From contig CAVZQN010000007.1 of NCBI GenBank assembly GCA_963777505.1, positions 64,001-128,000 of the forward strand: a stretch of 64,000 nt of DNA, written 5' to 3'. A program made the translations under genes and the position numbers. Below are positions 7,866 to 44,316 of this stretch, piece by piece (position 1 is the first letter of the stretch; each line of letters starts with the position of its first letter). The notes below the pieces were generated by a model. The model saw only the letters and a program-made list of their open reading frames with translations, made no database searches and was not told the origin of the DNA. This DNA is from an uncultured bacterium. GTDB lineage: Bacteria > Acidobacteriota > HRBIN11 > JAKEFK01.

Positions 7866-7990
7866 AGTTCACCTCCGAAGATCACTTTAATTTTATATTC
7901 AACAGCGTGAAAACTTCCAGCGGAGCTAACTAATAACAAAAGGAATGTTTAGCGCTTCTCCCGCCATGTAACGTGTGATTGCATAGTGTT

Positions 7991-8025
7991 CCTCCCCCTT
8001 AGATAAGGGGGAGGTTAGGAGGGGG
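7991..8025. repeat. GC-rich palindromic dispersed-type repeat / possible terminator
   Basis: CCTCCCCCTT-agat-AAGGGGGAGG-ttaggaggggg downstream of the amidohydrolase stop. Confidence 0.5.
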
Positions 8026-8058
8026 TTGAAAATAATTTCCAAACAGAAAAACTCTAAA

Positions 8059-9783
8059 TCATTGTTTCTGATAAACAATCTTGCCGCCAACAATCGTGTA
8101 GAGGACCTGGGTGTTCAGAATTTCTGGAGGTTTCAATTCCAACAGATTTGACGAAAGGACTGTAATATCGGCGAGCTTGCCAACACGAATCGATCCTTTG
8201 ATCTCATCTTCAAAATTTCCATAGGCGGTATTCAAAGTGTATGCACGAATTGCATCTTCAATTGAAATACGTTCATCCGGAAACCAGCCCGCTGCAGGTT
8301 CCCCCTTGATTGTCTGACGAGTAACAGAGGCATAGAGTCCAAGCATTGGATTAATCGGATACTCTGCAGCGGAAGTACCGGGCCAATCGGTTCCAAATGA
8401 TAAAACCGCACCGCTCTTTTGAATACTTTTGAATGCGTATGCTCCTTTGCATCGTTCTGTGCCGATCCGTTCCTCCATCCATCGCATGTCATCGCTCAGA
8501 TGAAAAGGTTGTACTTCTGCAACTACTTTGAGTTCACCAAGTCTTGGAAAATCGCGTGGAGACATGACTTGTGCGTGTACGAGACGAAATCTTCGATCCT
8601 TCGCGCCGTTGATTTTGTTCAGTTCATCCAGATAATTCAACAACAAATGATTTGCTTCATCCCCGATCGCATGCACGGTCAGTTGAAGGTTCGCTTTATC
8701 TGCATCTAACATGTATTTCAGAAATTTACCTTCAACAAAATTACCTTTGTCATCTACCATTAACGGACGCCATCGTCCGCGGTTGGAAGGATCGTGCGAA
8801 TAAGGCTCGAAAAATCGCGCAGTACTGTTGCCCATAATTCCATCAATATGCCCTTTTAATGAACCTAGCCGGATCCACTCATCACCTGAGCCAACTTTAA
8901 TATTCCTTTCAGAAAGCTCATGCCAGCGATCCAGACCATAACGAAAATGCACGCGCACTGTTAACTCACCTTTCTGATGCAACTCGCGATAAATTTCAAG
9001 CTGAACATCATCTGACATATCGCTGACATTCGTGACTCCATATTTCGCAATTTCCGCCAGCGCCTTTTTCGTTTGGTTCAAACGCCGTTCATGCGATTGT
9101 TCTTTCGGAATCACTGAATCAAATGTCTCGGGTACGCTCTTGCCTTTCATGATTCCGGTGAACTTATTTTTATCGTGGATGAATTCAATCCCTTCCTTTT
9201 TTGGATTCGATGGCTCGATTCCGGCTGCCTTTAGAGCAGTTGCGTTTGCAGCAAACTCCGAATCGTCAAACTTACGGATGAATATCGGATAGTTACGTGT
9301 AATTTCAGAAATCAACGATAGATCAGGCGTGAACGCTTCACGGCGCTTACCGCCGGCACTATCTTCCGTCCATTGATCATATGCACCCCAATATCCACCT
9401 GTGATCCATTCACCTTCTGGAAGAGAGGCAATCAACTCTTTTATTCGATTTACAAAATCGGCTTGAGTTGTGACTTTCATGATGTTGAATTCAAGAAACT
9501 TTGCGGCTGAAGCAAAATGAACGTGGTTATCGTTAAATCCAGGGACAACAAAAGCCTTTTGCAAATCGATCTTGCGCGTGCGTTCTCCTTGTCTTGCAAG
9601 AACGGCGCTGTTGGAACCAACTGCTACAATTTTGTCTTTAACAATTGCAACAGCTTCCGCTTTTGGATTTGCAGAATCGACAGTCCAGATCGTTCCGTTA
9701 TAAAGAATGAGATCGGCAGGTTCTTCCGATGCAGATAGAAATGCTGAGAGAAACAAAACGAAGATCGTGATCCAAAATTTCAT
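8059..9783 (-). CDS. Secreted amidohydrolase family 3 (YtcJ-like)
   Basis: Signal peptide; PGFNDNHVH, VHAIGD, RLVHAQ, FGTDWP, GSIRVGKLADITVL. Confidence 0.9.
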   Translation of the reverse strand: MKFWITIFVLFLSAFLSASEEPADLILYNGTIWTVDSANPKAEAVAIVKDKIVAVGSNSAVLARQGERTRKIDLQKAFVVPGFNDNHVHFASAAKFLEFNIMKVTTQADFVNRIKELIASLPEGEWITGGYWGAYDQWTEDSAGGKRREAFTPDLSLISEITRNYPIFIRKFDDSEFAANATALKAAGIEPSNPKKEGIEFIHDKNKFTGIMKGKSVPETFDSVIPKEQSHERRLNQTKKALAEIAKYGVTNVSDMSDDVQLEIYRELHQKGELTVRVHFRYGLDRWHELSERNIKVGSGDEWIRLGSLKGHIDGIMGNSTARFFEPYSHDPSNRGRWRPLMVDDKGNFVEGKFLKYMLDADKANLQLTVHAIGDEANHLLLNYLDELNKINGAKDRRFRLVHAQVMSPRDFPRLGELKVVAEVQPFHLSDDMRWMEERIGTERCKGAYAFKSIQKSGAVLSFGTDWPGTSAAEYPINPMLGLYASVTRQTIKGEPAAGWFPDERISIEDAIRAYTLNTAYGNFEDEIKGSIRVGKLADITVLSSNLLELKPPEILNTQVLYTIVGGKIVYQKQ

Positions 9784-12887: not shown

Positions 12888-14375
12888 ATGAAACGATCAC
12901 TCTGTTATGTCGTTCTATTCATACTCGGCGTGCATTTGCTTGCATTTGCGGAGTCTGAAGATCGCACACCTATATATAAGGAAGTAAAAAACCGGCACGA
13001 TGAAGCCGTTCAACGGTTACAGGCTTGGATTCGACAGCCATCCATTGCTGCCGAAAAGTTAGGCATGAATGAAGGGTGCGAGCTCATGATGAAAATGCTG
13101 CGAGAAGCGGGTTTTCAGAAAGTTGAACGGATCGAAACAGATGGTCAACCCGCCGTTTTTGGAACTCTGGATGCAGGAGCACCGCGTACAGTTGGAATTT
13201 ATTTTATGTATGACGTAAAACAGGTCGACCCTTCGGAATGGAGCTCGCCACCCTGGGATGCCGCCATCATTGATAAGCCAGACTTTGGAAAGATCGTTAT
13301 GGGTCGCGGCGCCGTAAATCAAAAGGGTCCTCAATCCGCATTGATTGCTGCGCTTCATGCATTCAAAAATGCAGGACACAAATTGCCTGTCAATCTTGTG
13401 CTGCTTGCAGAAGGTGAAGAAGAAATCGGATCACCGCATTTTCATCAAGTCATCAATAAACCACAGGTAACTGAAGCGTTAAAAAAATGTACGGGTGTAT
13501 TTATGCCCAGCGCTGAACAAGATCCTGATGGCTCACTGACAGTGTCGCTTGGAGCAAAAGGTATTGTTGAACTGGAACTTGTTGCGAGCGGAAAGAAATG
13601 GGGACGTGGTCCGGGAAAAGATGTTCATTCGAGTTTGCGCGCAATTCTGGATAGCCCTTCATATCATCTCGTTCAAGCGCTCTCAACACTGGTCACACCG
13701 GATGGCGATCCTGCAATCGAAGGTTTTGCAGATCGTGCATTGCCAGCTTCTGCAGAATATCAGGAGATGCTGGACGTTGCTTCGAAGACTATTGAAGAGG
13801 ATGTTTACAAAAAAATGCTTTCCGCAAATCAATGGGCCCGCGATCTGCCGTGGCGTAAGACTCTAGAACGCCTTTTGTTTACGCCAACTGTAAATATTGA
13901 AGGACTCGTTGCAGGTTATACAGGTCCAGGCGGCAAGACTGTATTGCCGCATCGCGCAGTTGCAAAACTCGATTTGCGTCTTGTGCCAGATATGACGTTT
14001 GATGGCGCTGTTGCTGCGCTCAAAGCTCATCTTGCAAAACGCGGTTTTGGCGATATCGAAGTCAATCCAAGCGGCGGATATGATCCAACACAAACCTCAT
14101 CCAAGGCTCCGTTGATTCAAGCACAACTTTCTGTGTACCGAAAAGCAGGATTAAAACCAATCCTTTGGCCGCGGAATGCTGGCTCGTATCCAGGATATGT
14201 ATTCACAAACAAACCGATTTCTTTACCCGCTGGCCATTTCGGACTCGGCCATGGAAGTGGAGCACATGCACCTGATGAATACTTTGTGATCGAATCTACG
14301 AATCCAAACTTTGGCGGCTACGATGATGCTGTGCGCTCGTTTGTTGATTACTTATTTGAATTGGCTGCAATTTAG
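12888..14375 (+). CDS. Secreted M20/M25/M40 metallopeptidase
   Basis: Signal peptide; YDVK, GRGAVNQKG, EGEEEIGS, HAPDE. Confidence 0.9.
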   Translation: MKRSLCYVVLFILGVHLLAFAESEDRTPIYKEVKNRHDEAVQRLQAWIRQPSIAAEKLGMNEGCELMMKMLREAGFQKVERIETDGQPAVFGTLDAGAPRTVGIYFMYDVKQVDPSEWSSPPWDAAIIDKPDFGKIVMGRGAVNQKGPQSALIAALHAFKNAGHKLPVNLVLLAEGEEEIGSPHFHQVINKPQVTEALKKCTGVFMPSAEQDPDGSLTVSLGAKGIVELELVASGKKWGRGPGKDVHSSLRAILDSPSYHLVQALSTLVTPDGDPAIEGFADRALPASAEYQEMLDVASKTIEEDVYKKMLSANQWARDLPWRKTLERLLFTPTVNIEGLVAGYTGPGGKTVLPHRAVAKLDLRLVPDMTFDGAVAALKAHLAKRGFGDIEVNPSGGYDPTQTSSKAPLIQAQLSVYRKAGLKPILWPRNAGSYPGYVFTNKPISLPAGHFGLGHGSGAHAPDEYFVIESTNPNFGGYDDAVRSFVDYLFELAAI

Positions 14376-14381
14376 GAAGTG

Positions 14382-15329
14382 TTAACGTTGTGATGAGCAT
14401 AAAGGGTTGATGCCTTTAATGCATGGAAGGATACCAGACAGAAGTATCGATCGTGCAACTTTGCCTTTTAGATGATTTTTTTCGATAGGCAAGCATAACC
14501 AATTCGATTGCTTTGGACTGCTCACGTCAGGCTGGTGCAGTCCCAATTTGGATATGCGATAAACTTCATATTCCCAAAGCTTCAATTGCTTATAAAGGTC
14601 AGACGGCTCATATCCGAGGCGCTTCATATGACTTTTCTTCACTTCAAGAATAATGTTTGGACGCACCGATTGGATAAAATGCTCCGCACCTGAAAGTACA
14701 GGAAGTTCATCTCCTTCAACATCTAACGTCATCAATGAAACAGGCAGCATAAGAGTATCCCTTTGTGAGTCAAGGGTTAAGCATTGTACTTCGATTACGG
14801 GGCTTTTAATGTCGGTATGTACATTAACAATGTGACCAATTCCTGAATTCTCATCCGGTGGGATTTCAAATAATCGTCTGCGGTTTTCTTTATCCAGCGC
14901 ATAGTCATACATCAATACATTCTTCTTGTTTCCATTTCCAAATAGGTCTTGCAATATCTGGAAATTATCCGGGAAAGGTTCGTATGCGTAGACATGACCT
15001 GCATCTTTGACAATATCTGAAAAACCGATCGTTTCTGTTCCAATATTCGCACCGACTTCCACAATGGAATCCCCAGGATTGCACAAGACGCGAGCAATCG
15101 AAATGATCCTCCAGTCGTTGTAGCCATGCATACAAAAGAGGTATCCATGGTATTCGCCGATTCGGCCTTTATATAACGACCCTGTTTGTGAAAAGCTTTC
15201 AAAAGAACGATTGTCCGTCCAAGCAAGTTCTATCGGAAAGATCCAATTCCGAATTTGTTGGGCGATGATGGGAGGAAGAAAACGACAAATCCGTTTTGCG
15301 AAGCTAAATCGCAGATCCTCGGTGGTCAT
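14382..15329 (-). CDS. FkbM family methyltransferase
   Basis: VEVGANIG, YAYEP, LDVEGDELPVLSGA. Confidence 0.88.
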   Translation of the reverse strand: MTTEDLRFSFAKRICRFLPPIIAQQIRNWIFPIELAWTDNRSFESFSQTGSLYKGRIGEYHGYLFCMHGYNDWRIISIARVLCNPGDSIVEVGANIGTETIGFSDIVKDAGHVYAYEPFPDNFQILQDLFGNGNKKNVLMYDYALDKENRRRLFEIPPDENSGIGHIVNVHTDIKSPVIEVQCLTLDSQRDTLMLPVSLMTLDVEGDELPVLSGAEHFIQSVRPNIILEVKKSHMKRLGYEPSDLYKQLKLWEYEVYRISKLGLHQPDVSSPKQSNWLCLPIEKNHLKGKVARSILLSGILPCIKGINPLCSSQR

Positions 15330-15464
15330 TTTTCACGACGATATACGCAAATTCTATCGATATTATTTTACCAATTCGGCTGCGAGCCTAATCCCACTTA
15401 AATATATACCCCTTTCGGGAATTGTTTACAGCATGCATAAACAACTTTCGATGATTAAAGGCTG

Positions 15465-16393
15465 TTATCTGCGGTGTCGGGTTTGAGTCTCCTTCTCATC
15501 TTCGGACTTTTGCTCTTCAATGAATATCGTATTGGAAGTGCCATCTTGAATTGATGGCACGCCACTTTGTTGATCCTGCGCCGGGGGAGTTGTTGAATCT
15601 TCCGCAGCCTCTTCTCCAATGAATATCGTATTGGAAGTGCCATCTTGAATTGATGGCACGCCACTTTGTTGATCCTGCGCCGGCGGAGTTGTTGAATCTT
15701 CTGCAGCCTCTTCTCCAATGAATATCGTATTGGAAGTGCCATCTTGAATTGGATGGCACGCCACTTTGTTGATCCTGCGCCGGCGGAGTTGTTGAACCTT
15801 CTGCAGCCTCTTCACCAATGAATATCGTATTGGAAGTGCCATCTTGAATTGGATGGCACGCCACTTTGTTGATCCTGCGCCGGCGGAGTTGTTGAATCTT
15901 CTGCAGCCTCTTCTCCAATGAATATCGTATTGGAAGTTCCATCTTGAATTGGAGGCACGCCACTTTGTTGGTCCTGCGCTGGCGGAGTTGTTGAACCTTC
16001 TGCAGCCTCTTCTCCAATGAATATCGTATTGGAAGTGCCATCTTGAATTGGAGGCACGCCACTTTGTTGGTCCTGCGCCGGCGGAGTTGTTGAACCTTCT
16101 GCAGCCTCTTCTCCAATGAATATCGTATTGGAAGTTCCATCTGCGATTGTTCCGGTAGAATTATTGTTGGCACCAGCCGATGATTGCGCAGTATTTTCGT
16201 TTGATGTAGCGCTTCGAGAGCTCGGATAGGTACGTTCGTTAAATAGAGGGTTTGCTTTCGGAGTTTCAAATTTGCTTTCCGATTCCGCGATTCCTCGCGA
16301 ACTTCGAGCTTTGTTCGAAACAGAAGATTCTGTTTTGCTGGATTCGTCCGCTCCAGTTATATTCGCTTGATTGTCCGCTTTTCTGATTTGCAT
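15465..16393 (-). CDS. Tandem-repeat protein (7 x DGTSNTIFI[G/E]E; about 308 aa after correcting two +1 indels)
   Basis: GGAGG RBS before ATG 16393; ORF pieces 15812-16393, 15517-16269 and 15465-15842 each encode the same 33-aa unit and join if two 100-bp units are restored to 99 bp. Confidence 0.8.
15519..16144. repeat. 99-bp coding tandem repeat, six full units plus a seventh core
   Basis: AATGAATATCGTATTGGAAGT starts at 15519, 15618, 15717, 15817, 15917, 16016, 16115 (spacings 99, 99, 100, 100, 99, 99). Confidence 0.95.
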
Positions 16394-16429
16394 CGCACCC
16401 TCCGTTACTTAGAAAGTCGATCCATGATT

Positions 16430-16446
16430 ATGCAATTCACATACCA
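16430..16446 (-). promoter_or_regulatory. Sigma54 -24/-12 promoter
   Basis: Minus strand TGGTAT-GTGAA-TTGCA: GG-N10-GC, 37 nt upstream of the repeat-protein ATG. Confidence 0.65.
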
Positions 16447-16489
16447 TAAGCTTAGCGAGAATTGAGTGAGGATTGGAAGCACATGAAAC

Positions 16490-16525
16490 GCAACATAAGT
16501 TGCTACTTGAAGAGACACAAGTTGC
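16490..16525. promoter_or_regulatory. Putative enhancer-binding-protein sites
   Basis: Palindrome GCAAC-ATAA-GTTGC (16490-16503) and imperfect copy GAGAC-ACAA-GTTGC 22 bp away, upstream of the sigma54 motif. Confidence 0.45.
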
Positions 16526-16821
16526 CTCTTTGAATAAACTCTCCTCTCACAAATTGATCTCTATCGCATGTTAGAATCTTAATCAGACATGAAAGAATCA
16601 ACCTTCTGGCAAGCACTCGATGTGTATATCAAACTCTCCCCTGTTCTACAGGCAGACAAATTAATGAGCCATTGCTGTTGATTCATGGCGAGATTGATCA
16701 AAACGCCGGACCACGCAAGGCAACTCAATAAGCGTATTTTGGAATGTTTGACTCAGGTCAAAATGACTGATAACTTTCGGACTTCTAGCATTGAACCAAC
16801 TTCATATAAAGAAGGAGCAAA

Positions 16822-17280
16822 ATGAAAACAAAATCGATCGTACTGGCATTGACTTTGTGCATAGCAGCGGTATGTCTGGCAGCGGACATTCAAATGGGAA
16901 CATGGAAGCTGAACGAATCCAAGTCAAAGCTCGATCCTGGAATGGCTAAGCACAACACGATCGTCTATGCTGCTGAGGGCGACAATGTGAAAATCACCGT
17001 TGATGGCGTTGACAGCAAGGGTAATCCGATACATAACGAATGGACTGGCAAGTTCGATGAAAAAGATTACTCCGTCAGCGGAGATCCGAGTTCTGACACG
17101 CGGTCTTATAAAATAGTCAATGATCATACACTGACGATGATTGTGAAAAAGGGTGACAAAGTCATTGCACAAGGAATCATTACTGTGTCATCTGACGGCA
17201 AAACTCGAACCTTCACCCTGAGGCGAACTGACGCGATGGGAAAGGAGATTAGCAGTATCGCCACTTACGACAAACAGTAA
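16822..17280 (+). CDS. Secreted beta-barrel (lipocalin-like) hypothetical protein
   Basis: AAGGAG RBS, signal peptide, GTWKLNESKS and VSSDGKTRT motifs. Confidence 0.75.
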   Translation: MKTKSIVLALTLCIAAVCLAADIQMGTWKLNESKSKLDPGMAKHNTIVYAAEGDNVKITVDGVDSKGNPIHNEWTGKFDEKDYSVSGDPSSDTRSYKIVNDHTLTMIVKKGDKVIAQGIITVSSDGKTRTFTLRRTDAMGKEISSIATYDKQ

Positions 17281-17344
17281 ACTGCTGCTGTTGAGCATCT
17301 TGGATGCGCAGGCCGTTCGCCAAAGTCGCCACACGCACTATATG

Positions 17345-18301
17345 TTACATTCCAGCGTCTGCCGCGCAACGAAAACCGTTGGTCGGGCGACGATCCAATT
17401 TTTCCATTCTTCGTCTGAATGTTGTCCGCATCTCAACCCATGAAGATTGATATGTTCCACCGCGAAGAATGCCGAATGTATCATCCGGTTTTTCAAGCTG
17501 GCCAGCTGGTGAATTGGGATAAGGATACCAGGAATCAGTAACCCACTCCCAAACATTTCCAGCAAGATCAAAAACGCCCATGGGACTCTTGTCTTCAGGA
17601 GCTGAACCGACCGGTCTTGCAACAAGTTCTCCTGAACTCCACTTGGATGCAACGGAAGCATCATTGCCCCACGGAAATCTTCGTCGATCATTCCCACGTG
17701 ACGCATATTCCCATTCCACTTCGGCGGGCAATCGTACTTTTCGCCACCTGCAATACGCAACCGCTTCATACCAGGAAACTCCTTCTACTGGATGATTCTC
17801 TTTTCCGGATGCAAAGGAACCATTTGCCCAGGTCGCCGGCCCGAACTTCCCTGTTGTATCTTTAAAAAGTCTGACTCGATCCATGCCTGTATAATCGGCA
17901 TTTAGATTGGGAGTCACAATCAACTCTTTCCAGAATTCCTTTCGTTCATAACCGCCATCGGAGATGAAGTCTTTATATTCTTGATTCGTTACTTCATACT
18001 TCGAGATTCTAAATGCTCGAACTTTTACCTTGTGATCCGGGCATTCCAAAAAGTACATCCGCGGACTGACGGTTGCATCAGGCGGGTAAAAATCTTTAAC
18101 AACTTGTTCGGCCTCTTCCGTTGAGAGCCCCATAACAAATTCACCTTCAGGAATTAATACAAGATCTTTGCTAATATCTTTTGCCATAATTTCCTCGCTT
18201 TTTATTTTCTGAATTTGTTTCGTCTGTGCTTCAGGATTTGATATACCATCCGAAATGATCCCTGTTGCACAAAAGAACACCAGAAAGATTTTCCACGGCA
18301 T
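17345..18301 (-). CDS. Formylglycine-generating-enzyme (FGE-sulfatase/SUMF1) domain protein, probably exported
   Basis: IPEGEFVMG, KYEVTN, HPVEGVSWYEA, RLPAEVEWEYA, DLAGNVWEW, GFRCA; hydrophobic start MPWKIFLVFFCA 7 nt after the upstream stop. Confidence 0.85.
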   Translation of the reverse strand: MPWKIFLVFFCATGIISDGISNPEAQTKQIQKIKSEEIMAKDISKDLVLIPEGEFVMGLSTEEAEQVVKDFYPPDATVSPRMYFLECPDHKVKVRAFRISKYEVTNQEYKDFISDGGYERKEFWKELIVTPNLNADYTGMDRVRLFKDTTGKFGPATWANGSFASGKENHPVEGVSWYEAVAYCRWRKVRLPAEVEWEYASRGNDRRRFPWGNDASVASKWSSGELVARPVGSAPEDKSPMGVFDLAGNVWEWVTDSWYPYPNSPAGQLEKPDDTFGILRGGTYQSSWVEMRTTFRRRMEKLDRRPTNGFRCAADAGM

Positions 18302-25253: not shown

Positions 25254-28200
25254 ATGTCATCCGAAAATTGGAATCGGATTAATGAGCTGTTTTACGCAGC
25301 TTTGGAGCATGCTCCGGAGCTGCGTGATTCATTCTTAAAAGATGCATGCGGAACAGATTCAACACTTCAGCAAGAAGTAGAATCGCTGCTTGCTGCGTAT
25401 ACTGACTCAGAAAACTTCATTCAATCCCCTGCCAGTAAAAATGCTCTTGAGTTTTTGCAACATCAGGATGTACAGCTAGCTACCGGCGATCGGGTTGGCG
25501 CATATAATATCGTTCGCGAAATTGGACGCGGTGGAATGGGTGCCGTTTATCTTGGAACACGCGCCGATGAACGATTCCAAAAATCAGTTGCAATCAAACT
25601 CATAAAGCGCGGAAGAGACACGGATGATGTCTTAAGGCACTTCCGTAATGAGCAACAAATTCTTGCAAACTTTGATCATCCAAACATTGCCCGTTTAATT
25701 GATGCAGGCAGTACCGAAAACGGCCTTCCGTATTTCATTATGGAACACGTTGAAGGTCAGCCGATCGATCAATTTTGCGATGGGCGATCGCTTTCAATAT
25801 CACGCAGCGTTTAGAGTTATTTCAGCAAGTGTGTGCAGCGGTATCCTATGCGCACCGCAATCTCGTTGTTCATCGGGACATCAAGCCATCCAATATCCTG
25901 GTATCGAATTCAGCTGGCGTGCCAAAATTACTCGATTTTGGTATCGCCAAAATCCTGCAGTCCGAAACAGGCGAGCGATCCACCGCAACCGGCATCCATT
26001 TTATGACGCCCGAATATGCGAGTCCCGAGCAAGCGCAAGGACTGGCGGTAACAACTCTGAGTGATGTCTATTCATTGGGCGTTTTGTTGTACGAACTTTT
26101 AACCGGTCACTCACCTTACCCTTTGGAAAATCGTTCGGCGTTAGAGGTTATGCGGACGATTACGGAGATACCCAGCCACAATTGCCTAGCGCGAATCATC
26201 AATTCAATTTCTAATCCTGAGTCTGTCAGTAAGACTCGCGAAGGCAGTCCGGAAAAGTTGCGCAGGCGATTGCGTGGAGATTTGGACACTATTGTTTTGA
26301 TGGCGATGCGGAAAGAACCTCAACGGCGTTATCAATCCGTTGATCAACTTTCAGAAGACATTCGGCGACACTTGCAAGGGCTTCCAATCACAGCACGCAA
26401 AGATACTTTTGCATATCGCACTACACGATTTGTGCTGAGAAACAGAATCACCGTTGCGATTACCATACTTTCGCTTTTAACAATTGCTTTGTTTGGTGCA
26501 ATCATGCAATGGAGATCGAATAAGCAAGCCAAGTTATTTCAGGAATTCGGACAGGAGGTCACGCGAATCGAAGCATCTATGCGATATGCGTACCTGCTGC
26601 CTTTACATAACATTCAACCCGATAAAGAGAAAGTCGTTGACCGGTTGGACTACATGAAAAAGAGAATGCAAGAAATGGGAAGTGTTGCATACGGAGCTGG
26701 TTATTATTCGCTGGGAAGAGGCTATCTCTCACTTCATCGATTTCAAGATGCGTATGACAATCTGATTCTGGCCTGGCAAAAGTATCAGTATCAAGAGCCG
26801 GCTGCTGCAAATGCACTGGGGCTGTCACTTGCAATGCTTTATCAGGAAAAGCTTCGTGAAGTAGAACAGTTACGTGATAAGGAACAATTGAATAAGCAAA
26901 AAGCAGAACTCGAAAAACGGTATGGGGTACCTGCACAACAATACATTCAAAAGGGAGCAAATTCGTCTGAAGCTCCTGAATATGTACAAGCACTATTGTC
27001 GTTTCTGGCAAAACAATATCCCGAGGCTTTAAACAAAGCGCAAACAGCTGAGCAAGAAATTTCATGGCATTACGAATCAAAAACACTTCAAGGTGACATT
27101 TTTTCTGCTATGGCAAATGAACAATACCGTGTAGGAAATATTTCTGAAGCTTCCGAACTATATGAAAAAGCAAAGGCTGCATATCTTGAAGCGGCAAAGA
27201 AAGGGCAAAGCGATCCACAGATCTATGAGGCGTTATGTTATGTTCAATCCCAGATTCAAGAAATACAAATAGATCACAAAAGAAAATCATCAGAAGAAGG
27301 TGTTGACGAAGCAATCAACTATTGCAAGAGCGCACTACAGATTGATTCAAAAAACATCAACGCAAATTTAATTGCGTCAAGAGTCTATAAAAATTGGGCT
27401 TATTATCAGTCCGATCATGGTAATGATCCATCCATCCCGGCGGAAAAGTCTGCCAACTTCGCACATGCAGCGCTAAAGATCGATTCAGAAAATGCGTTCG
27501 CGCATATTGCACTCGGTGAGGCATATTCAACACGTTCCAATTGGGAACTCATTCGCGGGCGAGATCCGATTCCATTTCTGGACCGTGCTGATGTCAGTTT
27601 TACAAAAGCAGCACAAAAACTGCCGGACGATTATCAGTTGTTGTTTCTTCTTGCCAACAATTCTATAAAGCGGGCACAAGATAATATTGTTAACGGGAAG
27701 GATCCGCGCCCGGCGCTCGAAAAATCGATCGAATTTACCGGAAAGGCAATCCCGCTCAATCCGCCGCACATTTTTAGGTATTTCACCATGCTCGGCCACG
27801 CATATCATGTGAAGGGGCAATATGAATTTGACATCGGGTTAGATCCACGAGACTCATTTAACAAATCGATTGAACTATCAAAGCAAAGCATTACAGCGAA
27901 TCCCAACTATTTCATACCTTATATATGGTGTGGACACTCCTATTTGGGACTCGCATTTCATCATATTCAAACAGGAAAGGATCCAAATGCGGCATTGGAT
28001 GAAGCACTCAAGTTTTACAAAAGCACTATTACCATGGACCCTGAGAATTCTTATGCATATCTCGGGATTGGTCTTGTGCACTCAAGGAAAGCCGAGGTTT
28101 TGCTGAAAGAGGGAAAGGATGTAACTCACATCATCAAAATGTGGCGCGAAGCGTTTGGGAAAACGTTGCAATTGGATAATTCGTACACCGCCTTTTATTA

Positions 28201-28648
28201 CTATTTTGCAGAAGCCGAACTCATTGCAGCACGAGATGCTGTATTTCGACGTAAGCAACCAGAGCCATTCTTCAAGGAATTGGAACGAATTGTGCGGGAA
28301 TGCCTTTCAATCAATCCACAATCGGCGGAATGTTTGGAATCATCAGCGGCATTCCATTGGTTGCGCACTGAGTATTCTGCTTCTTTAGGGAAATCAACTG
28401 AAAGCGAAATCCGTATCAGCATGAAAGCTGCCGATGACTCTTTGAAAGTGACCCCCAACAATGGTTTAGTACTCGCCTATCGCGGAAAATTACTTTTGAT
28501 CCGGGCCCAATCTTCATCCGGGGCAGAAAGAAAAAAAGCTGCACAAGAAGCGCAGGCCTCATTTGATAAAGCATTCAAGGCGAAAACAACTCTCCGCAAG
28601 GAATACGAAAAATATTGGGAAGAGGCAAAACGGCTGAGTCAAGACTAA
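25254..28648 (+). CDS. Tandem paralog Ser/Thr kinase-TPR, frameshifted near 25800
   Basis: ORFs 25254-25814 and 25775-28648 together reproduce the 21865-25245 architecture; kinase region near-identical at DNA level. Confidence 0.88.
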
Positions 28649-42931: not shown

Positions 42932-43639
42932 ATGTCTTTTCTGTATCCACCCGTGAAAGTAATGTTCCCGCATCTGAATGGAAACGCAAAGATCCACATG
43001 TCATCCAAATTTGCAGGATGCGGAGAAGAAATCAAAGAATATAAAGTTGACGAATTCAAACAGGCTACCGGCGTTGAATATCTTTCAACTCTGGAGTTTC
43101 AAGATGAGAATACTAGACAGCGCATCAGCGAACAATGTACCCATGCATCACAAAACGGTTACATCGACTCAAAGAGAAAATGGCTTGGAGCTTTATATCA
43201 GGATCAAATCAGAACTCATTACGTCGCAGATGTTTCGATCCGCTGGATTAATGAATCACTGGAATATGGTTTATTCGCGAATCAAAATATCGGCGCATGG
43301 GATTTTATCGGAGAATATACAGGAGTCGTTCGGAGACGTTATCCTATCTTTGGAACAATGAGTGATTACTGCTTTTTATATCCGACCTCCCGATACTTCT
43401 ACGGAAAGCACGTTTTAGACGCCAAAATAAAGGGTAATGAAATCCGTTATGCAAATCACAGCGATGATCCAAACTGCGAAGTCACCGGAATCTTCGGTGA
43501 GGAATTATTTCATTTGATTTTGAGAGCCATCAAGAATATTCCAGCAGGAACGCAATTAACATATGATTATGGCCCACGATACTGGAGATGGAGATCTTGC
43601 TTACCTAATGTTAACGGATCTGAATTCGAAAATATGTAA
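42932..43639 (+). CDS. SET domain protein-lysine methyltransferase (start uncertain, possible frameshift near 43020)
   Basis: YGLFA, FIGEYTG, GNEIRYANHSDDPN, QLTYDYG SET motifs. Confidence 0.85.
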   Translation: MSFLYPPVKVMFPHLNGNAKIHMSSKFAGCGEEIKEYKVDEFKQATGVEYLSTLEFQDENTRQRISEQCTHASQNGYIDSKRKWLGALYQDQIRTHYVADVSIRWINESLEYGLFANQNIGAWDFIGEYTGVVRRRYPIFGTMSDYCFLYPTSRYFYGKHVLDAKIKGNEIRYANHSDDPNCEVTGIFGEELFHLILRAIKNIPAGTQLTYDYGPRYWRWRSCLPNVNGSEFENM

Positions 43640-44316
43640 ACACGTTAGAAACGCGCTTTTTATTGGGATCGCTTTAATCACTTTTTCATGCGGCAATCCA
43701 GATCGGAACTCTACCGCAATTCTCAAAGAACTACTCACGCAATCATTGTGATTCTTCTCGCATCACTGCAAAGAAACGGGAACGCCCGGCGCAATCCTTG
43801 CCGTCGAGAAGTTCATCCCTGCTTTTCCGGATGGGAATAAGATCACCGTGCGCCAACTGCTGCAACACACGACCGGCTTGAAAGATTTTTACTCATATCT
43901 CTATTACCGTCCCGATCGAAATGAAATGATCAAGCTGGTTACAAAACGTTGGAGCCAACCAGAATTGATTGAACTCTCCAGCCGCTTTGGGCTTTGGTTC
44001 GACCCCGGAACTGATTGGGCATACAGCAGCACAAACTATTTCCTTCTTGGTGTCATTATCGAACACGCTAGCGGATTGCAACTTCCTGAAGCCTATCGGC
44101 ATTACATTTATGATCCTCTCAAAATTACACAAACATGGCTTCCTCATCATGAAGAAGATCGTGGAATTTTACCGACAGATTATATGGGAAAAGTTACTCT
44201 GGTACATTCCTGATCGCGATATCACACTCGCGTTATATTTCAACCGAGGTTTTATCGATCAGAGAGCGATCCTACAACAACTATTGACTGTAATCTCAGA
44301 AATGGCAGTTAGATAA
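43632..44316 (+). pseudogene. Degenerate serine hydrolase (beta-lactamase family) remnant
   Basis: ITVRQLLQHTTGL and PGTDWAYSSTNYFLLG present, but the SxxK region and C-terminal motifs are missing; several short fragments. Confidence 0.65.

Follow-up and report, generated by a model that had tools for sequence, protein, structure and literature searches.

Background

DUF1559 proteins (PF07596, SBP_bac_10), the pseudopilin-like proteins of the Planctomycetota, are among the largest bacterial families of unknown function. They number 68 paralogues in Planctopirus limnophila (PMC10632474) and 74 in Rhodopirellula baltica (PMC2754498), and the passages on the family in both papers give its function as unknown. 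Here we describe a gene that carries the DUF1559 signature, IxDGTSNTxxxGE, on the minus strand at 15465-16393 of a 64,000-nucleotide (nt) stretch of contig CAVZQN010000007.1 (the window), from an uncultured bacterium of the Acidobacteriota. The window protein resembles the planctomycete proteins in holding this signature at a score above the family cut-off, and some of its homologues also retain DGSVRT at the position of the C-terminal H-X9-DG element. It differs from them in having no prepilin leader or helix, in matching only about 30 of the 268 profile positions and, as a family, in showing the motif up to seven times on disordered linkers; its host lineage, moreover, falls outside the planctomycetes and lacks true DUF1559 genes.

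Cyanobactin precursors of the PatE type offer a second comparison, because in these a conserved leader is followed by several copies of a short core. The window family likewise combines a leader-like conserved N-terminus with a repeated short core, but it has no conserved maturase, protease or exporter nearby and no conserved recognition or cleavage flanks, and its small single-core relatives carry the core near the N-terminus rather than the C-terminus.

We propose, with a probability of about 40%, that this is a real, lineage-restricted gene for a disordered "beads-on-a-string" protein that displays a DUF1559-derived beta-element as stickers on spacers. The arrangement is a new architecture for a known, uncharacterised motif rather than a system of a new kind; a literature search on DUF1559 and on the DGTSNT and H-X9-DG motifs turned up no account of arrays of the motif.

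A tandem array of seven DGTSNT cores

Tandem Repeats Finder placed an array with a period of 99 nt (6.3 copies, 96% matches, score 1128) at 15514-16142. It encodes seven DGTSNT cores on the minus strand, with the first D at 16141, 16042, 15943, 15843, 15743, 15644 and 15545, in agreement with the seven IxDGTSNTIFIGE cores, partial end units included, that an earlier reading of the same DNA (the original prediction) had counted. When the array is cut at each GATGG[A/C]ACTTCCAATACG, six full units of 99, 99, 100, 100, 99 and 99 nt are obtained, plus a last one of 81 nt that runs to the stop codon. Each unit, in its own frame, encodes DGTSNTIFIGEEAAE[G/D]STTPPAQDQQSGVP[P/S]IQ, and the last encodes DGTSNTIFIEEQKSEDEKETQTRHRR. 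The 33-amino acid (aa) unit of the original prediction stands as written for units 1, 2, 5 and 6; units 3 and 4 are 100 nt long. That the array is not a product of chance is apparent from a six-frame search with the expression DG[TS]S[NR]T over the whole genome of the bacterium (G000; 5.23 Mb in 14 contigs, 95.9% complete), which returned the seven cores and one stop-riddled chance site.

An ATG at 16393 opens a hydrophilic frame, and an in-frame TAA 18 nt upstream of it bars any N-terminal extension. The first 84 residues, ahead of core 1, are 19% S, 13% A and 12% N with a grand average of hydropathy (GRAVY) of -1.09, close to the Ser/Asn-rich N-terminus of about 80 residues first described. 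The GRAVY of the window protein is -0.7 to -1.1 and the isoelectric point of the array is 4.05. Neither a signal peptide nor a transmembrane segment was found in the window protein, in which the highest 19-residue Kyte-Doolittle mean is 0.15. The features of the gene are as follows (ORF, open reading frame; pLDDT, predicted local distance difference test score).

16398-16403, minus strand: Shine-Dalgarno-like GGAGGG, 4 nt upstream of ATG 16393 (sequence reading)
15812-16393, minus strand: ORF as assembled, 193 aa, with the N-terminal module, cores 1-3, 12 out-of-frame residues and a stop (PF07596, E 3.5e-10)
16142-16393, minus strand: 84-residue hydrophilic Ser/Ala/Asn-rich N-terminus, family-defining (alignment, phmmer, composition)
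16241-16297, minus strand: best-conserved N-terminal stretch, residues 33-51 RGIAESESKFETPKANPLF, a candidate docking motif (invariant G34-E43, L50 and F51; local rise in pLDDT, block mean 63)
16043-16141, minus strand: repeat unit 1, 99 nt, core and linker (unit cutting)
15944-16042, minus strand: repeat unit 2, 99 nt (unit cutting)
15844-15943, minus strand: repeat unit 3, 100 nt, with an extra base at the 3' junction (unit cutting)
15846-15857, minus strand: first frame break, at the GCCATCCAATTC junction, which combines the variants of units 1-2 and units 5-6 (sequence, unit cutting)
15744-15843, minus strand: repeat unit 4, 100 nt, readable in the third frame only (ORFs, unit cutting)
15746-15757, minus strand: second frame break, GCCATCCAATTC junction identical to the first (sequence, unit cutting)
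15645-15743, minus strand: repeat unit 5, 99 nt (unit cutting)
15546-15644, minus strand: repeat unit 6, 99 nt (unit cutting)
15465-15545, minus strand: last partial unit, with core 7 (IQDGTSNTIFIEE), a charged 13-residue tail and the stop (unit cutting)

An N-terminal module defines a small family with conserved cores

A word-indexed search at E<=0.01 returned 113 proteins, which were sorted into 7 of Group A, 88 of Group B and 18 fragments or other forms. Group A is the unnamed family of the window protein, recognised by a common N-terminus and the absence of hydrophobic ends; its members have an N-terminal module of about 60 aa, KGIAESESKFE..LF, which the original prediction had overlooked, followed by 1-7 cores on variable linkers. 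In a phmmer search with the 64-aa N-terminus against 1.84 billion representatives, 9 proteins were found at E<=1e-3, with the window protein as top match. A hidden Markov model of the module matched 2 of 401 genomes of the phylum, both from genus g1, to which the congener G041 belongs. Scans of a genome collection and of metagenomes gave one extra locus each; with the single relative from the metagenome scan, repeat numbers and neighbourhoods could be compared at three loci. Complete intact members are encoded at L001:5998-6879 (293 aa, CAWINI010000001.1) and L009:299-868 (189 aa), and the window protein is 44-54% identical to six Group A members, with which it shares 21 invariant columns in the N-terminus. 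Searches of NCBIfam, PADLOC and PHROGs gave nothing meaningful for the window protein or its homologues, no NCBIfam model was found for Group A or for the repeat of Group B, and the N-terminal 70 residues had no usable match in the ESM Atlas.

In an alignment of seven sequences, the N-terminal module has 18 invariant columns centred on GIAESESKFE and LF, and the invariant columns of the repeat region are D118, G119, T120, S121, N122, T123, G127 and E128, together with P147. The linkers drift far more than the cores; linkers as conserved as the core, which the original prediction had named as evidence against itself, were thus not found, the invariant columns being core residues and a single Pro. 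From 35 distinct cores in 11 sequences, the consensus is [T/P]-[T]-I-T-D-G-T-S-N-T-I-[V/F/I]-[V/I]-G-E-Q, with I (29) or V (6) at position -2, G at +9 in 30 and E at +10 in 27; the spacing from D to D is 12-103 residues. For the DGTSNT motif, the window gene uses GGA ACT TCC AAT ACG and the L001 homologue uses GGC ACA TCC/TCG AAC ACA. Because the two genes use different synonymous codons, the core is kept at the protein level and, as judged from these sequences, selection acts on the Group A cores.

Three paralogous small hydrophilic ORFs lie within about 50 kb on contig C1 of G041 (L017:9384-9731, L018:9286-9687 and L001:10221-10490). They share an MKVKxxQN start, one DGTSNT core and PFxKDSFE[ST], with pairwise E values of 1e-13 to 1e-16; G000 yielded no counterpart. 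In a further protein, P0009 (329 aa), five 41-aa units each have a DGTSNTIFIGE core joined directly to DGSVRQV, so that both DUF1559 motifs stand in one repeat.

The cores match a short segment of the DUF1559 profile

Both main ORF pieces are matched by PF07596, one at E 3.5e-10 (40.8 bits) and the other at E 2.1e-12 (48.1 bits), scores above the Pfam gathering cut-off of 23.3 bits, and the link to DUF1559 made in the original prediction, for which a profile search had been proposed as the check, is borne out. Each piece matches in three stretches, always at about 157-190 of the 268 profile positions, so the score is summed over the same 30 or so positions. Nothing in the window protein matches the part of the profile (positions ~1-70) that covers the prepilin-type hydrophobic helix, and a longer N-terminus that might hold such a helix is excluded by the upstream stop; the C-terminal H-X9-DG element (TIGR04294) was also not found in the protein. 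The earlier statement that the pilin helix and the rest of the domain are missing is therefore correct, with the profile unmatched beyond ~157-190 and a maximum hydropathy of 0.15. The match carries a warning for annotation, since Pfam labels such proteins DUF1559 above threshold although only ~30 profile positions are held in common.

Some homologues retain more of the domain. DGSVRT or DGSSRT elements are present in P0114, P0014, P0010 and P0005, and residues 112-230 of P0114, an intact protein from a sister genus, are collinear with PF07596 144-261, from the DGTSNT core to DGSVRT at the H-X9-DG position. Because of this collinearity, the comparison suggests that Group A may descend from the C-terminal half of a DUF1559 domain.

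PF07596 had no genome match in G000, with the same search positive elsewhere (e.g., G049, 7.9e-30); TIGR04294 had none in G000 either, a weak negative because that search lacked a positive control. PF07596 matches were found in 7 of 121 sampled genomes of the phylum (including the unpublished G049), in five of the seven on the N-terminal pilin part alone. At the DNA level, a back-translated DGTSNT pattern remained at background (0-3 sites, as in the reversed control) in all but three of 401 phylum genomes, a sample that includes the unpublished G049 and G152; the three are G000, G041 (6 sites) and G146 (4 clustered sites).

Predicted structure and use of the core in other proteins

AlphaFold2, run on the 193-aa product with the 7-sequence alignment, gave a pLDDT of 43.1, a predicted template modelling (pTM) score of 0.16 and no secondary structure, with a bump in confidence at residues 41-50 of the N-terminal module only. 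This prediction fits disorder. It gives no solenoid (pLDDT 43), the other outcome that had been named in advance as contrary to a string of separate cores. Complex prediction with four copies of residues 80-181 gave scores of 0.02 and 0.01, below the mark, which carry no weight either way on self-association.

The 88 proteins of Group B start with a signal-peptide-like segment, end in a hydrophobic one and hold 3-5 cores at intervals of 27-33 residues; [VI]PEP is found near the end in 31 of them, and a precomputed PF07589 match in 12 of the 113 proteins found. P0013 and 87 similar proteins form an unnamed exported family of ~210-240 aa with five I-x-DGTSNTI-x-FGE repeats, each followed by a conserved Cys, and a PEP-CTERM-type tail. 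With a 41-sequence alignment, P0013 was predicted to be all-beta (pLDDT 81.8, pTM 0.72); in the model, the DG of repeat 1 is flanked by strands 38-43 and 46-51, and the DG of repeats 2 and 4 is followed by strands. For this fold, Foldseek found nothing in the PDB at E<=1e-3, a profile search of PDB sequences gave 0 matches at E<=10, and the best Z in a wide VIA-align search was 4.4, with OspA/OspB-type sheets at 4.1-4.2, within noise. In three longer relatives (P0116, P0117 and P0118), folded exported domains are joined by Pro/Thr linkers that bear 4-7 cores. In light of these proteins, the core behaves as a strand-turn-strand building block, either within a fold or strung on linkers.

The window protein shares with Group B (P0013 and, in the same phylum, L031:1512-2138 of G146) the I-x-DGTSNTI-x-x-GE core flanks and a similar period of 27-33 residues, but the signal peptide, structured Cys spacers, sorting tail and predicted fold of that group are all missing from it. 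None of these Group B features was found in the window protein, whose N- and C-terminal hydropathies are -0.6 and 0.2, against >1.8 and >1.5 in the 88 Group B proteins, and neither PF07589 nor TIGR02595 matched it. Its closest architectural analogues are P0116, P0117 and P0118, which also have 4-7 near-identical cores in tandem on low-complexity linkers. These differ in having a signal peptide or lipoprotein start, a folded N-terminal domain of ~300 residues and a C-terminal domain that contains Cys. The linkers of the window protein are acidic Gln/Ser, those of the three proteins Pro/Thr, and the KGIAESESKFE module is missing from all three.

Two frame breaks in the assembled gene

The interval 15465-16393 is 929 nt long, which is not a multiple of three, and it is not one ORF; the open part gives 193 aa. 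The original prediction treated it as a single reading and passed through two +1 breaks without remark. Because units 3 and 4 are 100 rather than 99 nt long, the seven cores are spread over three frames: cores 1-3 are in ORF 15812-16393, core 4 is in the frame of ORF 15517-16269 only, and cores 5-7 are in ORF 15465-15842. At the junction, units 3 and 4 have ...gtgccatccaattcaagat, units 1-2 have gtgcctccaattcaagat and units 5-6 have gtgccatcaattcaagat; for the form CCATCCAATT at this junction, the first two units show CCTCCAATT and units 5-6 show CCATCAATT. Each broken junction combines the two in-frame variants exactly, and in the array it is located between them. Such a hybrid fits a real evolutionary intermediate (+A, then -C); it also fits the product of a consensus caller working from mixed or misplaced reads.

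A tblastn search of the whole genome with a kinase domain gave collinear high-scoring segment pairs in two frames at 11 of the 96 kinase-domain loci of G000, which suggests that either a single-base indel occurs about once in every ~7 kb of coding sequence or kinase pseudogenes are unusually numerous. This rate bears on every frameshift reported from the same assembly. Because kinase-domain loci in G000 are so often frame-split, an assembly error is slightly favoured for the array as well, and the odds that the breaks in the window copy are an artefact are a little better than even; otherwise, the gene would be truly broken after core 3 and would yield a 193-aa product with three cores. A search of sequencing reads found two soil-metagenome runs from one study (word shares 0.06 and 0.04), each of which gave one 151-nt contig covering 16256-16406; these contigs reach the N-terminal module only, and the two runs gave no coverage of the repeats. 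No RNA run was among those found.

Programmed frameshifting was also considered as the principal explanation and was rejected, since the break in the homologue P0007 lies elsewhere in the gene and no slippery or stimulatory signal was seen at the junctions. The candidate four-letter codons for read-through, TCCA, CCAT, AATT and TCAA, each also occur in frame elsewhere in the gene.

Gene neighbourhoods

The gene that follows the array gene is on the same strand.

14382-15329, minus strand: FkbM-family methyltransferase, 136 nt downstream of the array gene (PF05050, E 1.7e-19; TIGR01444)

Other neighbours in the window encode an M20 peptidase, a small exported protein and a protein with an FGE-sulfatase domain. 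A comparison of neighbourhoods, proposed with the original prediction, showed three different settings at three loci: apart from the window, the L001 homologue stands between a kinase-TPR gene and a GH53-like gene, and the L009 homologue between an ankyrin-repeat gene and a gene for a small exported protein. FkbM was rejected as a conserved partner, being unmatched in G041, which retains the array gene, and absent beside the L001 and L009 homologues. Since the three neighbourhoods all differ and FkbM is unmatched in G041, no partner gene is conserved. Base composition around the gene showed no island-like deviation (GC content 0.41-0.50), Rfam gave no match in 14000-18000 at E<=0.1, and a promoter and terminator scan, which found one promoter-like site against 2.8 expected, was uninformative.

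A proposed sticker-and-spacer model and its alternatives

In the model that we favour, the protein would be built from three kinds of element: a hydrophilic N-terminal module, tandem cores of 13-15 residues of the form [TP]-I-x-D-G-T-S-N-T-I-hydrophobic-hydrophobic-G-E, and acidic Q/S/T/P-rich spacers of free length. The core would correspond to a strand-turn-strand element in the beta-sheet of DUF1559 domains that also builds the folded PEP-CTERM repeat proteins, and in the window family it would have been cut loose from any fold. The N-terminal module (KGIAESESKFE..LF) may be a docking or targeting motif. The cores could then act as multivalent beta-strand stickers, pairing mutually or with the exposed sheet edge of a partner, and their copy number would set the valency.

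A number of points weigh against this model. It is at its weakest in the lack of an export signal: the folded and the Pro/Thr-linked relatives are all exported, and the compartment and the partner of the putative stickers are therefore conjectural. Flagellar or type III export of the Ser/Asn-rich N-terminus was considered as a route and rejected, as a search for the export gate gave no FlhA-family match in G000, with the control positive in 4 of 14 genomes. Expression of the gene is predicted from its sequence, and binding by the cores is hypothetical. The predicted disorder depends on a shallow alignment of seven sequences, where AlphaFold2 often fails anyway. The linkers are not fully free, given that PP[SA]QDQxxG[TV]P recurs in several members. 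In P0007, from an independent metagenome, the frame likewise shifts after the first core when the protein is compared with the intact L001 homologue, its last ~70 residues matching an alternative-frame ORF of L001 (64% identity, E 2e-24); taken with the two breaks described here, this could mean weak selection on the family. In addition, two identical breaks in 929 nt exceed the random expectation from about one break per 7 kb of kinase-domain sequence.

These last points lead to the view that the gene is a decaying or neutral remnant, in which a DUF1559 fragment acquired from outside the lineage lost its fold, was expanded by slippage and has been drifting since, this copy being a pseudogene. 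Besides the two frame breaks here and the one in P0007, such a history would account for the collinearity of P0114 with the C-terminal half of PF07596, for the lack of true DUF1559 genes in G000 and their scarcity in the phylum (7 of 121, five with the pilin part only), for the tiny and patchy Group A, and for units that are 96% identical, a degree of identity by which the expansion of the array is judged recent. We nevertheless consider it unlikely: there are intact full-length members from two other sources, sequences that have diverged by ~45% overall, with turnover of synonymous codons, still agree in the cores and the N-terminal module, the DGTSNT frame is free of stop codons in all seven units, and similar single-base breaks are common in otherwise good kinase domains of G000. 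The kinases themselves raise a different prospect, that of a scaffold whose T-S-N-T sites serve as acceptor or recognition sites, making the protein a multisite substrate or ligand of TPR-containing Ser/Thr kinases. The genome has 96 kinase-domain loci, the L001 homologue divergently adjoins a gene for a 1092-aa kinase-TPR protein, a gene for a 1007-aa kinase and the gene after it flank one of the small single-core ORFs of G041, and two kinase-TPR genes are found 5.5-9 kb from the window gene. However, adjacency to a kinase holds at 2 of 5 inspected loci, in kinase-rich genomes; the core is also part of exported proteins, beyond the reach of cytoplasmic kinases, and neither FHA nor any other phospho-reader is linked to the locus. 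A role of this kind is quite improbable.

The original prediction had offered two functions, neither of which fits well. As a multi-core precursor of a ribosomally synthesised and post-translationally modified peptide (RiPP), the protein would have an N-terminal leader and cores that are modified (e.g., methylated by FkbM), excised and released. Its leader-like N-terminus without a signal peptide, the near-identical cores with variable spacers and the methyltransferase gene 136 nt downstream on the same strand are of the expected kind, and in G041 the small single-core ORF L017:9384-9731 directly follows genes for a PhyH dioxygenase and a B12-binding radical SAM protein. The context is against it, with three differing neighbourhoods that have no modifying enzyme, protease or exporter in common (window, L001 and L009) and no match to FkbM in G041, although the array gene is retained there. 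G000 has neither an orthologue of the radical SAM protein nor the small-ORF family, the L017 radical SAM protein scores below every RiPP family cut-off, no conserved cleavage motif adjoins the cores, and 88 exported proteins clearly use this core as a structural repeat; a precursor is accordingly improbable. The other suggestion, a decoy or mimic presenting a foreign epitope, would have the array titrate a factor that recognises the DUF1559 motif, in the pilin machinery of the host or in neighbouring Planctomycetota. The motif is indeed shown without the rest of its domain, in a genome with no other DGTSNT site and no PF07596 match. With no secretion signal or FlhA-type gate by which to leave the cell and no evident target, this has very little to recommend it; a literature search gave no recogniser of the motif, only statements that the function of DUF1559 is unknown, and the only model of high confidence shows the motif as buried beta-structure.

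A more general form of the sticker model is also conceivable, if doubtful. The core was found in four settings, namely singly in small hydrophilic proteins, in the folded five-repeat PEP-CTERM proteins, in Pro/Thr-linked arrays of secreted proteins, perhaps enzymes or adhesins, and in the leaderless disordered array described here. It might be a portable, self-complementing beta-hairpin module deployed independently of the pilin fold, here as a leaderless, valency-tunable scaffold behind a private docking module, in which units of 99 or 100 nt would let changes in copy number switch distal cores in and out of frame. If so, the array would give a first handle on what the DUF1559 signature motif binds.

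The motif survives under selection without the rest of its domain and recurs in at least four unrelated architectures outside the Planctomycetota, which together mark the 13-residue core as the functional unit of DUF1559; in a minimal, soluble and multivalent form, it would lend itself to a search for the binding target.

Other genes

Two further genes in the window are fragmented. A Ser/Thr kinase-TPR gene on the plus strand is split within its kinase domain into 25254-25814 and 25775-28648, which match the Pkinase profile at 1-90 and 99-233; by reading of the sequence, the break lies at a short run of T near 25815. It is one of the 11 frame-split kinase-domain loci of G000. A gene of the beta-lactamase family at 43563-44316 (plus strand) lies in fragments in several frames, with a PF00144 match at 43848-44213 only (profile positions 96-191 of 329).

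In G041, a same-strand run at L017:7125-10815 consists of genes for a PhyH dioxygenase, a B12-binding radical SAM protein, a small single-core protein and a 355-aa Cys-rich protein; the radical SAM gene may itself be split (7964-8263 and 8166-9362). The Cys-rich protein belongs to no known family and has three paralogues in G000 (52%, 37% and 30% identity). The closest of these is encoded next to a 156-aa hydrophilic ORF (C1:117894-118364 of G000, minus strand), which also adjoins a kinase gene. This ORF holds KDTFETPKEKNAF, weakly reminiscent of ESKFETPKANPLF in the window protein, and three ARTAKG.AY.KM repeats.

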